Below are positions 1,407 to 12,022 of a stretch of 12,372 nt of DNA, piece after piece (position 1 is the stretch's first letter; every line of letters begins with the position of its first letter). The notes beneath the pieces were generated by a model, which was not told the origin of the DNA, searched no databases, and worked only from the letters and a program-made list of their open reading frames with translations. Origin of the DNA: Candidatus Hodarchaeota archaeon (lineage in GTDB: Archaea > Asgardarchaeota > Heimdallarchaeia > Hodarchaeales > Hodarchaeaceae); assembly GCA_016840035.1 (NCBI GenBank), contig JAEOTC010000253.1:1-12372 (forward strand), read 5' to 3'. The translations under genes were made by a program, and so were the position numbers.

Positions 1407-3968
1407 TTAGCGTGATTTTGAAATCCTTCTTCGATAAAATGGAATTACCAAAACTAAAAGAAAAAGAAGGGGAAATCCTATACTTTGGCTAGTCTGAGTG
1501 GAAATGGGATAAGGTGTTGTTGTCGTTAGAGTAGTACTACTTGTTGGTGTAGTAGGTACAGCAGTAGTTCCAGATGCAAAAACGGTGAAAACGACCTCTG
1601 CAACCCCAATATTGTTAGCCTCATCGGTAGCTTCAATACGGAGAGTATAATCTCCTGAACTAGAAATTTCGGTAAGAATTGAACCATTAGATTTAAACCC
1701 AATAGATATATTATTTAGAAAAACCTCCACAGTAAAATTCTGGTCATCAAAAATAGTATAAACAAGGAAAACCTGTCCACCCCTAAAATCATAGGAGGAA
1801 CCATGTTGAGGGGACAAAATTTCGACCACGGGAGGAATAGAGTCGGAGGAACGAATGTCAAAGCTCAGCATATAAGAATAGGTTTCATAACCCAGATTAT
1901 CTTTAACATACACATACATCTCAACCGTTTCCCCAGCTGGCCAAGAAATGCCGGGGATAGAAAGGGAATAGGTTCCAAAAAACACTTCCTTCGGAAGGAA
2001 CATCTCCTCAAAGCCGAGAGAAGAAAAGTTCACATAGACAGACTCAACCCCTAGAAACGCATTGGGATAATTTTGAACGAGGAAGGACACATTTAATCCT
2101 TCATTGTCAAGAAGATAATGGGAGGAAATGGGATCAGAATGAAGAGTATGTTGTAGATCAGTAATGTAAATAGTAGAGGGTTCCTCACGTACCTGCGTAT
2201 ACTTGAAATAATCAGTTGGAAGAGCCCAATTTAACAAATTGTGAACAAACGGAATATTATCAATTGGATAGGGAAGATACGGGGTCGTATATGCAAACAT
2301 ATTCTTATAATCGGCAAAAATGGACTCCCCAGACATGATAAGTCTAGAATTATTCCAGGGACCAAGATGCCATTGGACCGCAGTCAGAGTCCAGCTACCC
2401 AGTGTGAAGGTCGGATATCCTTCCCAAACATTATCAGCATCGAAATCCTGATCAACTATTTCCCCAGATTGTGAAGAATTCACGATCCAGTCAGTATAAG
2501 GAAGATCAGTCCATTTAGGCATGGTATTTATTCCATCTAATCCACCAGAATAAGGTGCAATCACCGTAGATCTGCGATAGAATAAATCATTAACTCCAGA
2601 AGTAAGATTAGCAATCGGGCCAAGAGAGTTTGTGACATTGGCAATTGCATAGCCATGAAGGCCATCAATAGGTATCCCATCGTGAATTGAATCATCTTGA
2701 ATAATCATCTGACCACCAAGAGCCAAAGAGAGATTATTAAACATGGAAGGATTCCAATAACCCCCATAATCCGAATCACCCGCAAACCAGATAGTACGAT
2801 TACCATACGCCCACCAGCGGAGAATAACATCAAGTTCAACAGGTGTGAAGCTGACACGATTACCCCATCCATTTCCATTTAAGATGAGAATATCTGATTC
2901 AGCGAGAAGATAAGGATCCAATAAGTCCATTACAACTACTTCAAAGCCCCACGCAGATGCATTGGACTTAAAACCTTCAACAGAATCATCAAAAGCATTG
3001 TGGCCATTGAAAACAAAGACACGAGGAACTTTGTTTAGGATCGATACGTCGGGATCGTTCGCCCACCGCAAAAGATTATACGTAAGCGGAAGATTCTGTT
3101 GGCCGAATCCTCCCCACAATGTTGTATTCGTAAAAGTGCCTTGATAGTCGACAAAGATACTCTCTCCCATCCAAACAGCTTTAGACGATCCCTTAGGACC
3201 TATTTGCCACTGAACTGCCGCTAATGTATAACTACCCGGAACATTCAGGGGATACCCCTTCCAAATAGTATCATTATCAATTTCTTCACCGTATACCATA
3301 CCTGCATTGGAGGTGTTAATAATCCAATCTGTGAAGGGGAGGTCATCCCATTTGGGTCCAAGATTAATCCCCGACTGATTACCTGAATACGGAACAACAC
3401 AGGTAGGAGCATGAAAACTCACATTGTAGACACCAGTTGTGATAGAATCGTTTACCCAAAGAGAATTGGTAGTATTCGCTAAAACACGATAAGGAGTTCC
3501 ATCATTACTAGCTGCATCTTCTACGCCATCATCTTGAAGGGTAACATTCAGACCTAACTCCACCACGAGATAATTTAAGTCAGAAACATTGTAGGAACCC
3601 CCATAATCACTATCACCCGCAAACCAGATAGTACGATTACCAGTTGCCCACCAGTCGGAGATAAGCTGTCGATCAAGGGGAGTTAAGAAATCAGGAGCAT
3701 TAAGAATCAAAATATCTGTAAATTCAAGGTATTCATTCGTGAAATGTTCAATAATATTTAGAACGTAACCCCACTCACTGGTTTTCTGTTTAAAGCCTTC
3801 AACTTCAACATGATAGGCACCATTGCCATTAAACAAAGTAATTACAGGAAAATGGTGATCAGTGATTGTATTAACGGGAGAAGAAGTCGTTATACTCAAA
3901 CCGTTCAACGGAAAAAGAACCAACGCGACAATTAAACTAAAAATAATCCCAAAGTGCTTCAGACTCAT
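1407..3968 (-). CDS. Secreted, C-terminally anchored cell-surface (glyco)protein: two tandem class-I GATase-like (DUF4350/GIFT-like) domains, Ig-like domains, Thr-rich linker and CTERM-like anchor
   Basis: Signal peptide MSLKHFGIIFSLIVALVLFP. Internal duplication at aa ~41-303 and ~315-582 (DILILN, GNRTIWFAGDSDYGG, QDD, GESIFxDY, NLLxWA). Ig-like segment D-x-x-PPVVEILSP...YTLRIEATDEANN. Tail TTPTSSTTLTTTT-GF-hydrophobic-RRR. About 20 N-x-S/T sequons. SD AAGGAGGT lies 6 nt before the ATG. Confidence 0.8.
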   Translation of the reverse strand: MSLKHFGIIFSLIVALVLFPLNGLSITTSSPVNTITDHHFPVITLFNGNGAYHVEVEGFKQKTSEWGYVLNIIEHFTNEYLEFTDILILNAPDFLTPLDRQLISDWWATGNRTIWFAGDSDYGGSYNVSDLNYLVVELGLNVTLQDDGVEDAASNDGTPYRVLANTTNSLWVNDSITTGVYNVSFHAPTCVVPYSGNQSGINLGPKWDDLPFTDWIINTSNAGMVYGEEIDNDTIWKGYPLNVPGSYTLAAVQWQIGPKGSSKAVWMGESIFVDYQGTFTNTTLWGGFGQQNLPLTYNLLRWANDPDVSILNKVPRVFVFNGHNAFDDSVEGFKSNASAWGFEVVVMDLLDPYLLAESDILILNGNGWGNRVSFTPVELDVILRWWAYGNRTIWFAGDSDYGGYWNPSMFNNLSLALGGQMIIQDDSIHDGIPIDGLHGYAIANVTNSLGPIANLTSGVNDLFYRRSTVIAPYSGGLDGINTMPKWTDLPYTDWIVNSSQSGEIVDQDFDADNVWEGYPTFTLGSWTLTAVQWHLGPWNNSRLIMSGESIFADYKNMFAYTTPYLPYPIDNIPFVHNLLNWALPTDYFKYTQVREEPSTIYITDLQHTLHSDPISSHYLLDNEGLNVSFLVQNYPNAFLGVESVYVNFSSLGFEEMFLPKEVFFGTYSLSIPGISWPAGETVEMYVYVKDNLGYETYSYMLSFDIRSSDSIPPVVEILSPQHGSSYDFRGGQVFLVYTIFDDQNFTVEVFLNNISIGFKSNGSILTEISSSGDYTLRIEATDEANNIGVAEVVFTVFASGTTAVPTTPTSSTTLTTTTPYPISTQTSQSIGFPLLFLLVLVIPFYRRRISKSR
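2761..2817. repeat. Direct repeat copy A (51/57 nt identical to 3598-3654; perfect 31-nt core at 2775-2805)
   Basis: atcacccgcaaaccagatagtacgattacca occurs exactly at 2775-2805 and 3612-3642. It encodes the GNRTIWFAGD motif of the duplicated domain. Confidence 0.9.
3598..3654. repeat. Direct repeat copy B (perfect core at 3612-3642)
   Basis: Partner of 2761-2817, offset by 837 nt (in frame). Confidence 0.9.
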
Positions 3969-4174: not shown

Positions 4175-4211
4175 ATTAATTTAGCAAGATTACGATTAAT
4201 TGGTGAAAAAA

Positions 4212-5399
4212 ATGAAAGCAATAATCAATGGAACAATATTAGATCCGAATCTGGGATTAATTAAACAAGGAAAGATCTTAATCGACCAAGGTAAGATCCT
4301 AGAGATAGGAACCGACATTGCTATACCAGAGGGGACTGAAACAATTGATGTGAAATCCAAATATGTCTGTCCAGGATTCATAGATGCACATACGCATCAA
4401 GGATTATTTGATGGGAGTATTGGCTGGGCAGGGGCAGATGGAAATGAAATGACAACCCCAGTTACTCCCATAATAAGAGGGATTGATTCATTCAATCCTC
4501 ATGAACCAAGTCTCAAAGATGTCCTAAAAGGGGGAGTAACAACCATAAATACGGGCCCAGGCTCAGGAAATGTCATTTCAGGAACGAATTTTTCGATCAA
4601 ACCTGTAGGGACGATTGTGGATGAAATGCTAGTGTTAAATCCCAGTGGCTTAAAAGTTGCCCTAGGAGAAAATCCTAAACGTATCCATGGACAAATGAAC
4701 AAGCGGATGCCAATGACAAGAATGGGAGTGGCCGCACTTCTGAGGGAAACATTAAATAAAGCAAAAGACTATATCAAGGAATTAGAACACTATAACGAAT
4801 CACTAAAGAAGGTGGAGGAAGGAAAACCTCAACCGAAACCTCCAAAAAAGGATTTAGGGATGGAAATCCTTGTAAAGGTGCTAGAAAGGGAGATTCCACT
4901 ACATGCCCATGCACATCGGGCAGATGATATAACTACGATTATCCGGATCGCTGAAGAATTTAACTTGCGATTGGTCTTAATCCACTGTACGGAAGGGCAC
5001 AAAATAGCCGATTACATCGCAAAAAAAGGATATCCCGCAGTGGTAGGACCAACGCTAATATGGGTCAGTAAACCCGAAACACGAGAACGTGGATTCAAGA
5101 CAGCAGTCATTTTACATAATGCTGGAGTCAAAGTATCATTACAAACAGATTCTTTAACTCCCATGAACTATTTTCCGCTATTACCCATGGCTGTGATCAA
5201 AGAAGGAATGTCAAGAGAAGATGCATTTCGTTGTGTAACCATGAATCCGGCAGAAATGTTAGGTCTTGAGCACAGAGTAGGTTCATTAGAGAAAGGGAAA
5301 GATGCCGATATTGTCATCTGGTCAGGCCATCCCTTCGAATTTTACAGCAAAGTAGAAAAGGTGTTTGTGAACGGAGAAGAAGTAAAGCTAACTGATTGA
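4212..5399 (+). CDS. Metal-dependent amidohydrolase (imidazolonepropionase-like / Amidohydro_1 superfamily)
   Basis: Motifs PGFIDAHTH (HxH), GGVTT, LKVALGENPK (Lys ligand), HAHRADD, IHCTEG, QTD and NPAEMLGLEHRVGSLEKGKDADIVIW. ATG 4212, after SD GGTGA, is preferred over TTG 4200. Substrate not assignable. Confidence 0.9.
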   Translation: MKAIINGTILDPNLGLIKQGKILIDQGKILEIGTDIAIPEGTETIDVKSKYVCPGFIDAHTHQGLFDGSIGWAGADGNEMTTPVTPIIRGIDSFNPHEPSLKDVLKGGVTTINTGPGSGNVISGTNFSIKPVGTIVDEMLVLNPSGLKVALGENPKRIHGQMNKRMPMTRMGVAALLRETLNKAKDYIKELEHYNESLKKVEEGKPQPKPPKKDLGMEILVKVLEREIPLHAHAHRADDITTIIRIAEEFNLRLVLIHCTEGHKIADYIAKKGYPAVVGPTLIWVSKPETRERGFKTAVILHNAGVKVSLQTDSLTPMNYFPLLPMAVIKEGMSREDAFRCVTMNPAEMLGLEHRVGSLEKGKDADIVIWSGHPFEFYSKVEKVFVNGEEVKLTD

Positions 5400-5472: not shown

Positions 5473-6306
5473 TCAAAATTTTCGTTTGAGGAAATAGATG
5501 AGTCCACCAGTTCCAACAAGGGCACCAATTATACCCATCCCAAACAACAGAAATATTTGTTGCATTCCTGTAATGAGAACGGTGTCAGTCCACCAGATAG
5601 TGATGAATTCCTCTTCAGGCAACCAATCAGAATACTTCAGGTTCCCGACGAAAAATTTGTCCTCCTCTTCAAAAGTATCAAAGTATCTGTCACTATTAAT
5701 ATCGTTACAAATAGATTTAGGAATCCAGAATTCGAAATCAGCAGAATCGATATTATGGTTCCAAGTCAAAGCTGTTCCAACACAATATCGAAAGTTATAT
5801 TCGGCAGTATTGGAAGTAAAGGTTCCTGCACCATCCTGGTAATCCCGATTGTAATGAATATTAACTGTATGTTCTTCTTCACCGTCAAAATATACAAAGA
5901 GTTCGAGAGCCTGAAAATCACCATAGGTTGAAATCGAAGGAATTTGAATGGTCTTCCACACATAATCCACGGGTAAACCATCAAGCAGGAGAGATTCTAG
6001 TAGAAGAGGGTTAGTTTCCTTGCTTCCTGAAATAACAAAAGGAAGTAAAATGTTGAGGCCAACAGAACTAGAATTTCCATTAGCAAAAGTATAATTTGCA
6101 TTAATGAAGACACGAGAAGACGTAAAACGGAAAATAATTACTTCTGATTTGAAATATACAGAATTATCATAATTTGAAGCTAGGGGAATAGTCCCATAGT
6201 TATAATCGCTAGGAATAGGGTTACCACGGGTGAGAAGCAACGGAGAAGAAAAGAAAAACAGGATTAAAAACGGGAGAATCAGAAATCGTAAGAGAAATCG
6301 ACTCAT
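5473..6306 (-). CDS. Secreted, C-terminally membrane-anchored protein, DUF4424-like
   Basis: Signal peptide MSRFLLRFLILPFLILFFFSSP. VYFKSEVI...ANYTFAN...LLPF and YCVGTALTWNHNI resemble DUF4424 motifs. Ends in a TM helix plus KRKF. ATG 6306 is preferred because GTG 6357 lies immediately next to the TATA-like box at 6360-6367. Confidence 0.65.
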   Translation of the reverse strand: MSRFLLRFLILPFLILFFFSSPLLLTRGNPIPSDYNYGTIPLASNYDNSVYFKSEVIIFRFTSSRVFINANYTFANGNSSSVGLNILLPFVISGSKETNPLLLESLLLDGLPVDYVWKTIQIPSISTYGDFQALELFVYFDGEEEHTVNIHYNRDYQDGAGTFTSNTAEYNFRYCVGTALTWNHNIDSADFEFWIPKSICNDINSDRYFDTFEEEDKFFVGNLKYSDWLPEEEFITIWWTDTVLITGMQQIFLLFGMGIIGALVGTGGLIYFLKRKF

Positions 6307-6359
6307 ACATTCAGTTAATCTGTTATCCTCCTTAAGCTTATTGGTGTTGACTGCCACCC

Positions 6360-6508: not shown

Positions 6509-8035
6509 CTAACTATAACTGATTTCTGATTTCGTTAGTACCAAAGACGCAAGATAAAAAGTAATTGCTAAAACGATATTAGCCTGTAAACTGAAGGAGA
6601 TAACCTCTTGGGCATCAGGCGTGGAAATATATGCTGCAAGAAGCAGACTAGAGAGAATGGGAGAGAATAGAATTAGTAAATAATCTACTCCAGGAAAAAG
6701 AAATATAGAAACCAAAATTCCAACAATTTCAATCCCAAAAATTGACAGAACTGTCGACTGAAGCAAATTCTTTACAGGAAAAATACGCCAAATCAAGAGA
6801 AGGACAGCTACAAAATAAATCGCCCGGAATAATAAATTAACAGCCAGCGGAAAAAAAGTAGATGTTTCAGACCTGAAGAAAATAACGAGAGCTCCAAAAG
6901 AAAAGAGGAAGTTTAGGAGAATTGGTCTGAGAAGGCTCGTAACTTTAAGAGAGAAGTAACGATAGGCAGAAATTCGTGCAAGGATCATTTCCTCCATATT
7001 ATATTCTTTTTCCATAACAATTTTAGGAAATATCGTAAATAATCCAATAAGAAGGATCGTAATGAAATGAATACAAAATAAATAGACGACAAACATTATA
7101 GAACTGAAAGAATCATCAAAGAGGATATAAACAAGGACGTAAGGAAGACAATTCAGGAGAAGCAAGGATTGTTGCCATGTAGGGGTTTGAGTAGATGTTA
7201 GGTTTAATAATTTTAAATAGAAATTAGAACTAGTGTGAAAATTACCACTTTTCATCTGTTGACCCCCTTTCATGACCTCAATAACAGTTTTCTGACATAT
7301 ATGAGTGATAACCTTGTACACAGAAAAGAGTAGAATAAAACTGAGGATGAGTAAGACGAGAAAAGATAAGGGAAAATCAGCAAAAAGGGACCGACCAAGA
7401 AGGACAGGTGAAATAAGGAACTGAAAGTCATATAAATCCAAAATTAGAAGAACAAAAAAGACAGTGAGAATCGTAAGGTAATAAATAATCGTACGAAATA
7501 TGGAAGATGGATAATAATTTTCAGAAACTCCAAGAGTTAAGACGGAGATAAGAAACCAATCAAAAAAGAAGAGGAAAAGTAACAGAAGAAAAAAAGGACT
7601 AAAGAAGAGGGGAGAAAGCCTGTTTCCGGAAAGTTTCTCAATCAAAAATACACCTAAAAAGCCACCGAGAGGGGGAAGAATCATTAAAATGGCATTGGCA
7701 AAACTTCGAGCAAAATACAGTGTCTTAAATTGAGTAGGAGAAATAACCAAGTAATCCAACATTGAAACCTGACGTTCTCGAGAAAACAGATCAAGATTGA
7801 TCGGAAAGAAGAGAAGGAAGAGAAAAAGAAGAAGTCCAAGGAGTTTAGAAGAGACTGGAGAGAAAGAATAGGAAAAAATGAAGTACAAAAAACTTGGAAG
7901 AAGGATTAGAAAAATACAGCCATAATAACACCAGAGTAAGAGGGAGGATTTGAGACGAATTTTGATCTCATGCACCGTACAATAATGAAAGAAAGGGGAA
8001 GGTAGATTATCAAAAAACAGCTCCATAAAACTCAT
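6509..8035 (-). CDS. ABC exporter permease (about 12 TM, probably two fused ABC-2-like halves)
   Basis: Highly hydrophobic, with two similar halves (FSRERQVSMLDYLVISP and IVMEKEYNMEEMILARIS resemble the ABC-2 E-R/K-E-x-x-x-x-E-x-L loop). ATG 8035 overlaps the ATPase TGA as ATGA, suggesting translational coupling. Confidence 0.75.
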   Translation of the reverse strand: MSFMELFFDNLPSPFFHYCTVHEIKIRLKSSLLLWCYYGCIFLILLPSFLYFIFSYSFSPVSSKLLGLLLFLFLLFFPINLDLFSRERQVSMLDYLVISPTQFKTLYFARSFANAILMILPPLGGFLGVFLIEKLSGNRLSPLFFSPFFLLLLFLFFFDWFLISVLTLGVSENYYPSSIFRTIIYYLTILTVFFVLLILDLYDFQFLISPVLLGRSLFADFPLSFLVLLILSFILLFSVYKVITHICQKTVIEVMKGGQQMKSGNFHTSSNFYLKLLNLTSTQTPTWQQSLLLLNCLPYVLVYILFDDSFSSIMFVVYLFCIHFITILLIGLFTIFPKIVMEKEYNMEEMILARISAYRYFSLKVTSLLRPILLNFLFSFGALVIFFRSETSTFFPLAVNLLFRAIYFVAVLLLIWRIFPVKNLLQSTVLSIFGIEIVGILVSIFLFPGVDYLLILFSPILSSLLLAAYISTPDAQEVISFSLQANIVLAITFYLASLVLTKSEISYS

Positions 8036-8991
8036 GAGAGATAAGCCATCCATTCAACCTTGGTATGGTTCAAGAAATAGATATCTTCTAAAATAACAGG
8101 ATTGGCAACAACCGTGTGATCAGACGGAGGTACATCAGAAAACAGAGAAGAGAGGGACGAAACATATTGTTGATGACAATAAAGGTCAATACCCCTAGAA
8201 GAGGTTTGGAAATATAGAATATCATCAATGGTAGCCAAATCAGGGATAGATTCACTGGAAATATCACCCCGAATTTCTACCCGTCGGAGTTGATCAAACT
8301 TATTCTTTAATTCAGAAATCCAGAGAGGTTGATGAAGCATAACACCCTTCTCAAGAATAAACACACGATCACAAACGGCTTCAATATCTTCGAGGATATG
8401 CGAAGAGATAAGAACCGTTTTATCAAAATCATCCGAGAGATCTAAGAGGAATTTACGAACCTGAATACGAGCTAAAGGGTCCAATCCACTGGTAGGTTCA
8501 TCGAGAATCAAGAGACGAGGATCATGAATAAGTGTAACCCCTAAACCTACCTTGTGTAACATCCCCTTGGAGAGTGATCTGATCGGTACATGTAAATACG
8601 AATCGATATCCAATGCTTTTATGACTCGCTCGCGCAAATCCGCTTGATCCACACGAGTATGATCACGGAGACGAGAGAAAAACTCCAAAACTTCAATCAC
8701 AGAGAAGTTGGGATAAAACGAGAAGCGTTCAGGAAGATAACCAATCAATTGCTTAATTTGAGTAGCCTCACGACTGGGATTTAGGCCGAAAATCTCAATA
8801 ATACCATAAGAAGGAAGAAGAAGGGTAGAAAGAATCCGAATAAGGGTCGTTTTACCCGCACCATTGTTACCCAGAATACCAACTGTCTCTCCCTCAGCGA
8901 CAGTAAGGTTAATGTTGTCTAAAACCACTTTATCTGGATAGTATATCCTTTTTATCTTTTCAAGATACACAGGTAAGGATTCATCAGACAT
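8032..8991 (-). CDS. ABC transporter ATP-binding protein (ABC-2/DrrA/CcmA-like exporter ATPase)
   Basis: Walker A GNNGAGKTT, signature LSKGM, Walker B/D-loop LLILDEPTSGLDP, H-loop ISSH. SD AAGGAG at 9001-9006. Confidence 0.95.
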   Translation of the reverse strand: MSDESLPVYLEKIKRIYYPDKVVLDNINLTVAEGETVGILGNNGAGKTTLIRILSTLLLPSYGIIEIFGLNPSREATQIKQLIGYLPERFSFYPNFSVIEVLEFFSRLRDHTRVDQADLRERVIKALDIDSYLHVPIRSLSKGMLHKVGLGVTLIHDPRLLILDEPTSGLDPLARIQVRKFLLDLSDDFDKTVLISSHILEDIEAVCDRVFILEKGVMLHQPLWISELKNKFDQLRRVEIRGDISSESIPDLATIDDILYFQTSSRGIDLYCHQQYVSSLSSLFSDVPPSDHTVVANPVILEDIYFLNHTKVEWMAYLS

Positions 8992-9035: not shown

Positions 9036-10550
9036 TTAAACCTCTCGGCCGAGAATTACAAAAACAATAAACCGCAAAATGAATAATCCAATGGATAACA
9101 GCAAAATAAAGATCCAAAAAAACCTACTCGAAACGGGGGTTTTCGTAAGAAAATCTGCTGTCACTCGCTGATCCTTATCTAAATCAAAGCTTACAAATTC
9201 TAACTCTTGTTGGTTTACTAGGAGTTGATAATAGTTTGCAAGTATCAACGCCAAAATAACTATACCCATACCGATACCCAGAACGTTGAACAAGTCAGCA
9301 AATACACAACAAAGGCCAATTACAAGCCAATTCCGATCAAACGTAAGATTATGACTATCAGTTCGAGTTCTGTTTAACAGCGGAGGAATTCGTTTACTAA
9401 AAAGTCTGTATAAACCTAAAAATACAGCTGTATAGACGATTCCATGCGAAAGTACTGTTAATGGGTCAGCAAATAAACCATCAAGGATATGAAAACGTGG
9501 AGAGCAGAAGTAAGCTAAACCCCCAGTAGGGACGTATTGCTCCGCTGCAGTATTCAATTGGTAAGTTCCCAATATCCATACAAAGATTGAGGAGGAATTT
9601 TCCCTTCCACTCGAATTCCAAACAACTTGACTAAGAAAACGGATAAGAGCGAAGAAAGTTGTCGTTAAAAGGATTGATAGCAAGGGGGAAGAGAGAGAAA
9701 CCTTGTGAGATTCTACATCGTCAAAATTATTACTATTAGATATCTGGAGCGACAAAAATGTCACCAAAAGGAAAATACCAATTGCAAACCATACAGAAAG
9801 AAGTGATAAATGAGGAAGGTTTAAGCTATGAGAACGAACGGGACTATAACGAAAGAATAAGAAGCCAAAAGCATTAAGACCCTCTTCTCCGATACAATAA
9901 AGAATAGCTAAAAAAATTCCCCGTGCTGATGTAAGTTCACCCGGTCCTTCTAAAATATTGTTGGAAGCAAGAAACGCCTGCATAATTTGCACCCAAATCC
10001 CACTTGCCAGAAAAATCGATATTCCCGAGCCTAATCCCCAACCTTTATTAATAAATTCATTTAAATAGATGATAATAATACCTGCTATAATCAATTGTCC
10101 GACAATTGAAAATTGAGTAAATATATCTAAATCTGTACCATATAATCCTGAAAGGATTAAAATCAAGGCCATAATTACAGTAAAAACGATACCCAAGAAA
10201 ATTCTGATACGATTGTACCGTTTAAGCTCATCAGGATGGGTAGGATCAAATTGGTAAAGATTGGTTCTTAAAAAAATGTGAAATACAAATCCAGCAGTTA
10301 AAAGTGGTAGAATCCCTAATTCGGTAGAAGTACCATGCTTAGAAGCCCCAATAATACGAATAATGCCATAAGGATCTGCTTCGCCGAGATTAGCCCCTAT
10401 TAGAGGAATGACGGCTAGCAGAGAGTATACAATGATAACCCCTAGAGTAATAAAGACCTTAACAGAAAAATTATCTTTATTAAGCGAGTTTATAAGCATT
10501 TTTTTAAGTAAGAAGCTGTTGTTTTCTTTTCCCAGATTTTCTTCCACCAT
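9036..10550 (-). CDS. secY: Divergent SecY/Sec61alpha paralogue with reduced cytosolic loops and an extra C-terminal TM helix
   Basis: Motifs in SecY order: IPLIG; plug DPYGIIRIIGASKHGT; ELGILPLLTAG; GLYG; QLIIAGIIIIYLNEFINKGWGLGSGISIF; PTGGLAYFCSP; DP...IVY; FADLFNVLGIGMGIVI...YYQ. ATG 10550 is preferred (GAGG 6 nt upstream). The symbol denotes homology only; this is probably not the housekeeping copy. Confidence 0.9.
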   Translation of the reverse strand: MVEENLGKENNSFLLKKMLINSLNKDNFSVKVFITLGVIIVYSLLAVIPLIGANLGEADPYGIIRIIGASKHGTSTELGILPLLTAGFVFHIFLRTNLYQFDPTHPDELKRYNRIRIFLGIVFTVIMALILILSGLYGTDLDIFTQFSIVGQLIIAGIIIIYLNEFINKGWGLGSGISIFLASGIWVQIMQAFLASNNILEGPGELTSARGIFLAILYCIGEEGLNAFGFLFFRYSPVRSHSLNLPHLSLLSVWFAIGIFLLVTFLSLQISNSNNFDDVESHKVSLSSPLLSILLTTTFFALIRFLSQVVWNSSGRENSSSIFVWILGTYQLNTAAEQYVPTGGLAYFCSPRFHILDGLFADPLTVLSHGIVYTAVFLGLYRLFSKRIPPLLNRTRTDSHNLTFDRNWLVIGLCCVFADLFNVLGIGMGIVILALILANYYQLLVNQQELEFVSFDLDKDQRVTADFLTKTPVSSRFFWIFILLLSIGLFILRFIVFVILGREV

Positions 10551-10628
10551 TCTCATCCTCTCAGCCTAGAAATTGCAGTCAAATTTCAAAAGTATTCTCT
10601 CCAATCTTGATAAGAAAGTGATTCTAAG

Positions 10629-10636
10629 TTATATAA
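10629..10636 (-). promoter_or_regulatory. Putative TATA box (TTATATAA) upstream of the secY paralogue
   Basis: Archaeal TATA consensus ~80 nt upstream of ATG 10550, in the intergenic gap. Confidence 0.45.
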
Positions 10637-10703
10637 TGCTTATGGTGCAATTATTTGACAAAAATCGGGAAAAAAGGAATAATGCAGTGTAGTGGTCAGT
10701 AGA

Positions 10704-11465
10704 CTAAGTGAGTAAATGCTTGAAACGAGGGGAAATCGTTAATCCTCTTCCATTTTGCTCAATAACATCATGAGTCCTTAAAATTTTTACATAATATGAC
10801 AGTAACGATTTGTGGATCCCTAAAGTTATACAGAGATCCTTTTGAAAAACCATTGTAGAACTTCCATGCAAACATTGAAGGATTTCTGCAATATTTTGGT
10901 TCTGAAGTAACGAAAATAATAATCGAGCATCTTCTGACCAATATTGGGACGTATCAAAATAATGGTTTGACTTTCCAAATTTTACCATTTCAATTTTACC
11001 TTCTTGTTCAAGAATACGCAACCAATATTGCACTGAACCCATGGCGACATTTGAAAGACGAATTATTCCACGAAGAGATACTCCTGGATGGTTTAATATG
11101 GTTGTTGAAATTACTTCACGAGTATCACGAGTTTCTTTCCATTCTTGAGACGAATGGATCATCTTATACAAGTTATAGACAACTGGAGGAATAAAAAATG
11201 CTGAAAGATGAATCCTATCAACTACGTGAGTCGACAAGCTACAAAAAGGATCAGATAGATCAGGGTTTAGGAAAAAGGACGATGCTACCATATCGGGAAT
11301 AACTACTTCGCCTTGATAGGAAGCCACCTGCTGGGGAACAGTATTCAGTGGTGAATTTCCAAATACGGCGAAGATAGAGAGAACTAGAAGTAGAACGGCT
11401 ATGATACCTCTTGCATGTAACCAAGTGATACGGAAGCGAATGAGTAATCCCCTCTTGATGATAAT
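10704..11465 (-). CDS. Double winged-helix transcriptional regulator (COG3398/ArsR-MarR-like) with a probable N-terminal TM segment; start uncertain
   Basis: HTH1: TREVISTTILNHPGVSLRGIIRLSNVAMGSVQYWLRILEQEGKI. HTH2: QKDLCITLGIHKSLLSYYVKILRTHDVI. The frame stays open upstream of the track's GTG 11327 to 11480 and encodes RGIIAVLLLVLSIFAFVFG. SD AAGGAG precedes in-frame ATC 11468 and ATT 11465. Confidence 0.75.
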   Translation of the reverse strand: MIIKRGLLIRFRITWLHARGIIAVLLLVLSIFAVFGNSPLNTVPQQVASYQGEVVIPDMVASSFFLNPDLSDPFCSLSTHVVDRIHLSAFFIPPVVYNLYKMIHSSQEWKETRDTREVISTTILNHPGVSLRGIIRLSNVAMGSVQYWLRILEQEGKIEMVKFGKSNHYFDTSQYWSEDARLLFSLLQNQNIAEILQCLHGSSTMVFQKDLCITLGIHKSLLSYYVKILRTHDVIEQNGRGLTISPRFKHLLT

Positions 11466-11628
11466 GATTCGTTCTCCTTTTTATGCTTTTCTTCTCCCTC
11501 ATCAGAAGTCAAAAGATTGTATTACAATCTTTAATCACAAGAGGTCGAACAAAAATGTCAAAAATGATTAGTAGTCCTCAGGAAAAATTTTAGAGAAAGA
11601 ATAAGAGAAAATCAGATGCAATTGGGAT

Positions 11629-11940
11629 TTATTTCTTTTTGGCTGAAGTGACGAAGGATTTAGCTTCCTCAGCAAGTGTAATCCATACCTCTAGCGGGCT
11701 CGGAGGAATAGCTACCCACTCTTTCATAAATTTCCCAGTACCTGGATCCCAAGGTAGCCCTTCCCCAGAATCAACGAGTTCTTTAACTCGGGTAGCGGCC
11801 ACCTTCACAACAAATTGGTCGTTTTTAGTCCACATAGCAAACATTTTCTTATTCTTTTTCAAGGAATTTCCTTGCTTCTGAACACCTGACATTTTTAGAA
11901 AGTGTTCCATTAGTCTCTCAAAATCTTCTTTCCCTGACAT
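11629..11940 (-). CDS. Small TfoX-N / MmcQ-YjbR-like putative nucleic-acid-binding protein
   Basis: LK-x-NKKMFAM...FVVKV...RVKELV..G.G..WDPGTGKFMKEWVAI...W..LAEEAKSFV is the typical pattern. Start M20 (11940) is preferred: GGTGTGG lies upstream, and TTATTAAG at 11981-11988 falls inside the longer ORF. Confidence 0.7.
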   Translation of the reverse strand: MSGKEDFERLMEHFLKMSGVQKQGNSLKKNKKMFAMWTKNDQFVVKVAATRVKELVDSGEGLPWDPGTGKFMKEWVAIPPSPLEVWITLAEEAKSFVTSAKKK

Positions 11941-12022
11941 TGGTCTTCCACACCGTTGATCAATGTTTTTAGTAAAAGGGCTTAATAATCTGTCCACTTC
12001 GTATGATCCAAAGCAATTATGC

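Follow-up and report, generated by a model that had tools for sequence, protein, structure and literature searches.

A single-chain SecY-SecE fusion with a linked winged-helix regulator and candidate operator in a Hodarchaeales archaeon

Contig JAEOTC010000253.1 of Candidatus Hodarchaeota archaeon (assembly GCA_016840035.1), which we analysed over its full 12,372 nucleotides (the window), carries a secY-like gene with altered motifs. A sequence-only reading of this DNA had proposed a second, functionally specialised channel, relevant to the diversification of translocons near the origin of eukaryotes. The locus thus raises the question of whether the gene encodes a second translocon, how its product departs from the housekeeping SecY of the same genus, and what such a protein might do. 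The features of the locus are collected in Table 1.

The SecY core and its SecE-derived helix

The frame is intact, as the sequence-only reading had it, with 506 residues from the first ATG (504 from an alternative start, ATG 10550), and the SecY assignment held for both sequence and predicted structure. The protein scored 57.3 bits against PF00344 (cut-off 32.2), and its AlphaFold2 model (pLDDT 83.4, pTM 0.86) has the ten-helix clamshell fold, with mammalian Sec61alpha (7tm3) being the closest structure found by Foldseek (TM 0.69/0.75, E 5e-18). The plug domain PF10559 scored 16.1 bits, below its cut-off of 22.1, and a short helix was modelled in this region; the equivalent of R66 (plug R67) is invariant among the proteins that share the fusion, referred to here as the fused family. 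The NCBIfam equivalog cut-offs for housekeeping SecY were not reached (125.6 vs. 300 and 76.9 vs. 253.6).

All of the motif changes listed earlier are present in the protein, but the reference against which they were set needs replacing, the proper one being the host's own housekeeping SecY (GSLAELG, LDE, GSGMG, YVSNIP). Hardly any other copy has GTSTELG or lacks the TM7 proline; LNE and the missing N-terminal PEVxxP occur in only part of the fused family. Changes found family-wide matter more than these. The largest lie beyond the motif list: loop 8/9 is shorter by 28 residues, and SecE has contributed an 11th helix.

Several comparisons identified the source of this helix, which spans residues 475-500 in the AlphaFold2 model. 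By BLASTP, the tail of the fusion protein matched the end of the host SecE at 11 of 14 positions (E 6e-7). A SecE profile built without the tails gave P values of 7e-7 to 4e-5 for nine fused-family tails, compared to about 0.05 for housekeeping tails, and a profile-profile alignment of fused tails with SecE using hhalign reached E 5.5e-6. Among the 5118 ORF tails in the host genome, the fusion tail on its own ranked second (E 0.22); the argument for SecE therefore draws on the family as a whole and on the precise ending LGREL, which is limited to the SecE of the host's sub-lineage. The tail corresponds to the C-terminal clamp helix of SecE/Sec61gamma (TIGR00327), while the amphipathic helix and KP-x3-E hinge of SecE are not retained and a polar linker stands in their place. 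The host genome has one secE gene and one Sec61beta gene. A Sec61beta origin of the tail was rejected, with no alignment to the host Sec61beta at E 100.

SecE-like tails were also seen on two SecY proteins outside the fused clade. P0134 (L172:712-2292, GCA_048938655.1) has a tail at P 1e-11 that keeps a KTPE hinge-like motif, and the tail of P0194 (L173:428-1903) is weakly SecE-like. Because these SecY proteins are unrelated to the fused family, SecY-SecE fusion may have arisen more than once. When 301 Asgard genomes were searched with P0134, none of the matches listed was a full-length SecY-SecE protein.

We compared the anatomy of 11 fused proteins with that of 20 housekeeping SecY proteins of the same genus. 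Across the fused set, loop 8/9 is down from 49 to about 21 residues, loop 6/7 is rewritten, both gate positions Q127 and N300 are non-polar, and the pore ring and plug Arg are retained. The equivalents of K273, R276 and R405, basic residues of the ribosome-binding loops 6/7 and 8/9, are absent from the fusion protein; the GMQ.PG.RR motif of loop 8/9 and its R405 equivalent are missing from all fused members, and the sequence of this loop drifts freely within the family. Loop 6/7 was modelled at a pLDDT under 50. Compared to the host housekeeping SecY, the two cytosolic loops are 4% and 2% identical, whereas the outer loops are 67% (loop 5/6) and 52% (loop 7/8) identical. In yeast, loops L6 and L8 serve ribosome binding and co-translational transfer, and mutations in them preferentially block SRP-dependent translocation, not dislocation (PMC2171681).

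Residues newly fixed across the fused family are L83, N115, R306, F457 and D458, and the changes G82 -> L and G439 -> N are shared by the 11 fused proteins. The pore ring of the fusion protein is hydrophobic (I82/L86/I179/L183/L296/I434), the corresponding human Sec61alpha ring being I81, V85, I179, I183, I292 and L449. At the lateral gate, the polar cluster T86/Q127/N300 (human numbering) is reduced to T87, with the non-polar M129 and L304 in place of Q127 and N300; position 127 is non-polar or Gly in 11 of 11 fused proteins. The energetics of Sec61 gating are set by Q127/N300, and N300L gives resistance to several Sec61 inhibitors (10.1101/2022.08.11.503542). Glu and Asp occupy these two positions in all 20 housekeeping SecY proteins (L001:1429-2937, G000 C71, plus 19 loci), where the acidic pair sits in the essential channel.

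Table 1. Features of the locus, with positions in the window
Feature	Positions	Strand	Basis or remark
Multi-pass permease overlapping the ATPase	6509..8053	-	only in this genus, 7/83 genomes
ABC ATPase (DrrA/GldA-like), own Shine-Dalgarno	8032..8991	-	44 nt downstream of the fusion gene
SecY-SecE fusion gene	9036..10556	-	open frame, PF00344, AlphaFold2, Foldseek
11th TM helix, equivalent to the C-terminal TM half of host SecE (C293:11752-11949)	9039..9122	-	BLASTP, HMM, hhalign
Cytosolic linker, family motif F-x-(R/S)-F-D	9123..9218	-	replaces SecE amphipathic helix and hinge
SecY core, TM1-TM10	9213..10478	-	alignment via vertebrate match with human Sec61alpha numbering, and model
Shortened cytosolic loop 8/9	9333..9395	-	21 vs. 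49 residues
R306 in TM7	9639..9641	-	invariant in 11/11 fused; Tyr in 20/20 housekeeping
Rewritten cytosolic loop 6/7	9684..9746	-	21 vs. 27 residues; K/R 1 vs. 4; 4% identity to housekeeping
Shine-Dalgarno-like GAGG	10557..10560	-	sequence
BRE/TATA-like element, 6-nt spacer then TTATATAA	10629..10642	-	same spacing in orthologues
Conserved 18-bp candidate operator, WGTCAAA-N3-TTGYAYYA, abutting BRE/TATA	10643..10660	-	matrix scan
Double winged-helix regulator (PF24266), one N-terminal signal-like segment	10704..11480	-	profile match, hydropathy
Second operator copy upstream of the regulator, inverted	11507..11524	+	18.8 bits, chance level alone; homologous place in orthologues

Copies, descent and selection

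A whole-genome search bore out the claim of a paralogue. The host genome has four secY-like genes, namely a canonical copy on contig C71, the fusion gene, and remodelled copies on C277 and C289; the C71 copy rules out the fusion gene as the only secY of the genome. The proposed Asgard host was correct, its relatives being named Hodarchaeales. It was also true that no ribosomal genes lie nearby, but this is not diagnostic because the housekeeping secY of the genus also lies outside the spc cluster (in the host it is on C71, and the ORF after L15 on C284 is S19-like).

The fused family forms one clade (100/99) inside a genus-level SecY clade (100/100) and stands apart from eukaryotic Sec61 in the SecY/Sec61 tree, where the fusion gene copy has one of the longest branches. 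The family probably nests inside the host's own sub-lineage, which it joined (SH-aLRT 92, quick tree) when the split class, a loop-remodelled secY with a separate secE gene, was left out of the tree; the sister relation of the fused and split classes may be long-branch attraction. Contamination or foreign origin of the fusion gene is unlikely: its GC and GC3 are those of the host, and its closest housekeeping genes belong to the host's own sub-lineage. No recent gene conversion of the outer loops was seen when three regions of the fusion gene were compared with the housekeeping gene, synonymous sites being near saturation in all three, a check that speaks to recent conversion rather than older events.

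Three grades of extra secY occur in the genus: a near-canonical duplicate, the split class, found in two genomes, and the fused form. The split-class loci (L067:6498-8228 and L068:7062-8845) have the candidate operator, a divergent secE, the loop-remodelled secY and the regulator in one run. At L176:3349-5746, two fused-type genes stand in tandem; both have an operator of their own, and the second is only 210 codons long. Independent divergent secY duplicates were observed in another Heimdallarchaeia family (L078:12869-14248, L079:5214-6224 and L080-L082), one of them inside a ribosomal protein operon. A secY branching outside Heimdallarchaeia (L070:652-2100, on the 2.1 kb contig C312 of G048) is possibly bin contamination.

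Pairs of fused genes gave dN/dS values of 0.28-0.40 (NG86) and 0.34-0.42 (LWL85), compared to 0.02-0.05 between housekeeping genes (one very close pair gave 0.17) and 0.05 for the near-canonical duplicates; the fusion gene and its nearest relative gave about 0.24 at a dS of 1.7. In a neutral simulation the frame was closed by 0.3 changes per site, while the real frame is open at a dS above 1. Neutral decay, which the sequence-only reading had named as the finding that would speak against it, is thus rejected for the family by values well below 1 and by frames that stay open at saturated dS. Selection is nevertheless relaxed: the fused family is under purifying selection about tenfold weaker than that on the housekeeping gene. 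Intact fused copies were found in 3 of 22 genomes, along with one remnant, a frameshifted and shortened secYE on contig C12 of G050 (L226:3234-3900). The split-class secY of G061 carries an internal stop, TAG.

Promoter, candidate operator and neighbouring genes

Both elements pointed out earlier, the Shine-Dalgarno-like GAGG and the TATA-like box (TTATATAA, 10629-10636), are present. The 18-bp candidate operator ends six bases ahead of TTATATAA, a spacing that recurs in orthologues, and was the top match in the genome (25.8 bits) for a matrix trained on other genomes; the same matrix had no match at 20 bits or more in 2 Mb of simulated sequence. The site precedes non-housekeeping secY genes and, inverted, the regulator gene, and none of the housekeeping secY loci carries it. 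The C277 and C289 copies have neither operator nor regulator. Genome-wide matches under 20 bits were no commoner than chance, so we do not claim a wider regulon in this genome. Across genomes the pattern was counted 32 times versus 11 in controls, a count that is partly circular. Operator-like matches also lie in front of a gene for a 127-aa membrane protein in the host genome (L210:1566-1583; 19.2 bits, no better than chance) and, in G059, among three small winged-helix-like genes (L188:1501).

The PF24266 regulator is single-copy in the host genome. Each of the best 12 matches to it among 83 genomes of the class lies within about 340 nt of a non-housekeeping secY; these 12 pairs are kin and not independent, but their gene order and orientation vary, and five fall outside the set used to build the model. 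The host copy lacks an ATG where its homologues start: the codon near 11453 is AAG, with ATC/ATT upstream, and the first common start is GTG 11327. Its signal-like segment is conserved in frame despite the missing ATG.

Judged by hydropathy and flank charge, the regulators have a single hydrophobic segment, preceded by a basic flank, and lack a second strong helix. In distant membrane-bound relatives a second helix returns the HTH to the cytosol, and this helix is absent in all subfamily members but one. By the positive-inside rule, which was used to orient the regulator, export of its DNA-binding domains would be expected, except if a short stretch of weak hydrophobicity ahead of the HTH inserts; with both topologies the outcome would depend on the translocon. 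A sister regulator subfamily (L160-L166) has the same operator and is mostly divergent from genes for a LolD-like ATPase and a 600-aa FtsX-like permease. Because the same site serves this ABC system, the inducing signal may be general envelope stress.

The ABC ATPase gene is probably co-transcribed with the fusion gene. Among orthologues of the ATPase, the operator is present in G061 (25.3 bits) and, as a weak match, on C4 of G065 (15.7 bits); it is not present at the orthologues of G049 and of G065 C42. Behind the permease, in the same orientation, is a 294-aa protein with a signal-like N-terminus, a C-terminal anchor and no Pfam match (5473-6357, -), and at 1407-3968 (-) is an 853-aa secreted-type protein with two similar DUF4350-like halves, a Thr-rich stalk and a C-terminal anchor. 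No link to the fusion gene was seen for three further genes of the window, which encode a DUF1295 membrane protein (288-1376, +), an amidohydrolase (4200-5399, +) and a weak TfoX_N/YjbR protein (11629-11997, -).

Possible functions and known translocons

The reading we favour, at a probability of roughly 0.45, is an inducible, self-clamped, ribosome-independent SecYE belonging to an export or envelope stress regulon, with both its activity and its expression being predicted. The clamp of SecY is SecE, and archaea have post-translational Sec transport for which no motor is known (PMC6098224). The favoured history would start with a duplicated housekeeping secY that came under a dedicated regulator. 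The fused helix would take over the SecE clamp and allow assembly without free SecE, and with loops 6/7 and 8/9 gone, ribosome-nascent chains would not be accepted; its substrates would be chains already released, with membrane proteins or stalled precursors the most plausible, and would pass via an easier-opening gate. The regulator would itself be a Sec client, and export would normally remove its DNA-binding domains or keep them off DNA. Should export falter, it would stay cytosolic, bind the site beside the TATA-like box, and activate secYE and the ABC transporters. The full version of this scheme is a Hodarchaeales export-stress response in which a Sec-client winged-helix activator, escaping when the translocon is overloaded, induces via the 18-bp site a single-chain SecYE able to conduct or insert proteins with no need of ribosome, SecA or SecDF; taken whole, it is tentative and rather doubtful.

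The fold, the asymmetry between outer and cytosolic loops, the yeast loop mutants, the gate changes, the frames open at high dS, the three-grade secY series, the operator-free housekeeping loci, the 12/12 pairing of regulator and secY and the regulators' missing second helix argue for the favoured reading, while the weaker selection, the drift of loop 8/9, the G050 remnant, the G061 stop, the long branch, the lost TM7 proline, the regulator without ATG and the C277 and C289 copies with neither regulator nor operator count against it. SecA and SecDF were not found, and the SecA_DEAD profile had no match in the host genome (87% complete), so that insertion of membrane segments, a process that may need no motor, is more plausible than secretion of long chains. 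The genes around the fused family include no targeting factor or substrate gene as a constant companion.

The same observations can be read in other ways. The induced protein might move no polypeptide and act as a SecY-shaped decoy that soaks up an inhibitor, phage or toxin ligand, or as a scaffold for outer-face partners (OST, TRAP, signal peptidase). This is unlikely but well matched to the outer loops, which are the best-kept part and follow the host's own housekeeping variant, to the loss of all cytosolic docking sites with no motor known, and to co-regulation with exporter-like ABC systems. The pore ring, however, is still conserved, and the gate-opening changes at Q127/N300 reduce Sec61 inhibitor binding (N300L) and suit a resistant channel better than a sink; to our knowledge there is also no archaeal SecY inhibitor for a decoy to bind. 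Less probable again is that these are regulated dosage copies in slow degeneration, having lost ribosome binding, kept under weak membrane-folding constraint, and heading to loss. The dN/dS of 0.3-0.4, the patchy distribution, the G050 pseudogene, the G061 stop, the three diverging copies in the host and the lost regulator start codon are what one would expect of such copies, but frames of about 500 codons remain open at saturated dS, the five new residues named above are fixed family-wide, and the SecE tail and operator-TATA spacing are kept across proteins only 40-55% identical.

We consider it improbable that the protein is a quality-control or leak channel that removes misfolded membrane proteins, scrambles lipids or passes small solutes under stress. 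Yeast dislocation does not require L6 and L8 (PMC2171681), a hydrophilic groove could be lined by the new TM7 Arg, and the C289 secY copy adjoins an SPFH/Band 7 gene; against this, the fused family has no protease or AAA ATPase gene as a constant neighbour, and the plug and pore ring are intact. An ancient specialised translocon bearing on the diversification of eukaryotic Sec61, the relevance that the sequence-only reading had proposed, is very improbable even though the Hodarchaeales host is described as close to eukaryotes (10.1101/2023.03.07.531504). The family nests in one GTDB genus and not with eukaryotic Sec61, its LGREL tail matches the host's sub-lineage only, and most Asgard genomes searched show one secY. 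Since the fusion arose late inside one genus, it has no direct bearing on eukaryote origins.

Set beside known translocons, the favoured single-chain SecYE shares with SecYE-beta/Sec61 (PF00344; 7tm3, 1rhz) the ten-helix fold, plug Arg, pore ring, TM5 GSG-I-S and outer loops, and is 38% identical to a close housekeeping SecY relative. It differs in having no loop 8/9, a rewritten loop 6/7, a hydrophobic gate pair, the TM7 Arg, the SecE helix and its own regulator. Like SecY2 of the Gram-positive accessory Sec system, the gene is a second secY that has diverged and lies away from the ribosomal operon (PMC12445088). The partners of SecY2 are SecA2, Asp proteins and a serine-rich substrate (PMC5578698), whereas no SecA2 motor, Asp proteins or linked glycoprotein substrate were found among the neighbours of the fusion gene, which descends from the host's archaeal secY. 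Yeast Ssh1p is likewise a non-essential Sec61 paralogue beside a canonical copy, but it serves the co-translational pathway only (PMC2171681); a protein without ribosome-binding loops would be the opposite specialisation, and the fused clade, its docking loops lost, lies outside the eukaryotic clade. The literature searched, which took in few subscription papers, describes neither a naturally fused SecY-SecE nor an archaeal SecY lacking these loops, and gives no account of the present paralogues. How proteins pass post-translationally through archaeal SecY in the absence of SecA has yet to be explained (PMC6098224). With ribosome docking lost and pore, plug and clamp kept, the fusion protein offers a ready single-gene test of SecA-free transport.

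The proposed regulation also has parallels. ATFS-1 of C. elegans is a bZIP factor that senses mitochondrial import, and the bacterial SecM, MifM and VemP are translation-arrest peptides. By analogy, the logic proposed here would be the same, with a client of transport controlling the genes that restore it, but unlike these systems the regulator would be an archaeal winged-helix activator acting on a DNA operator. The linked regulator and candidate operator would provide a direct assay of translocon-overload sensing in an Asgard archaeon.
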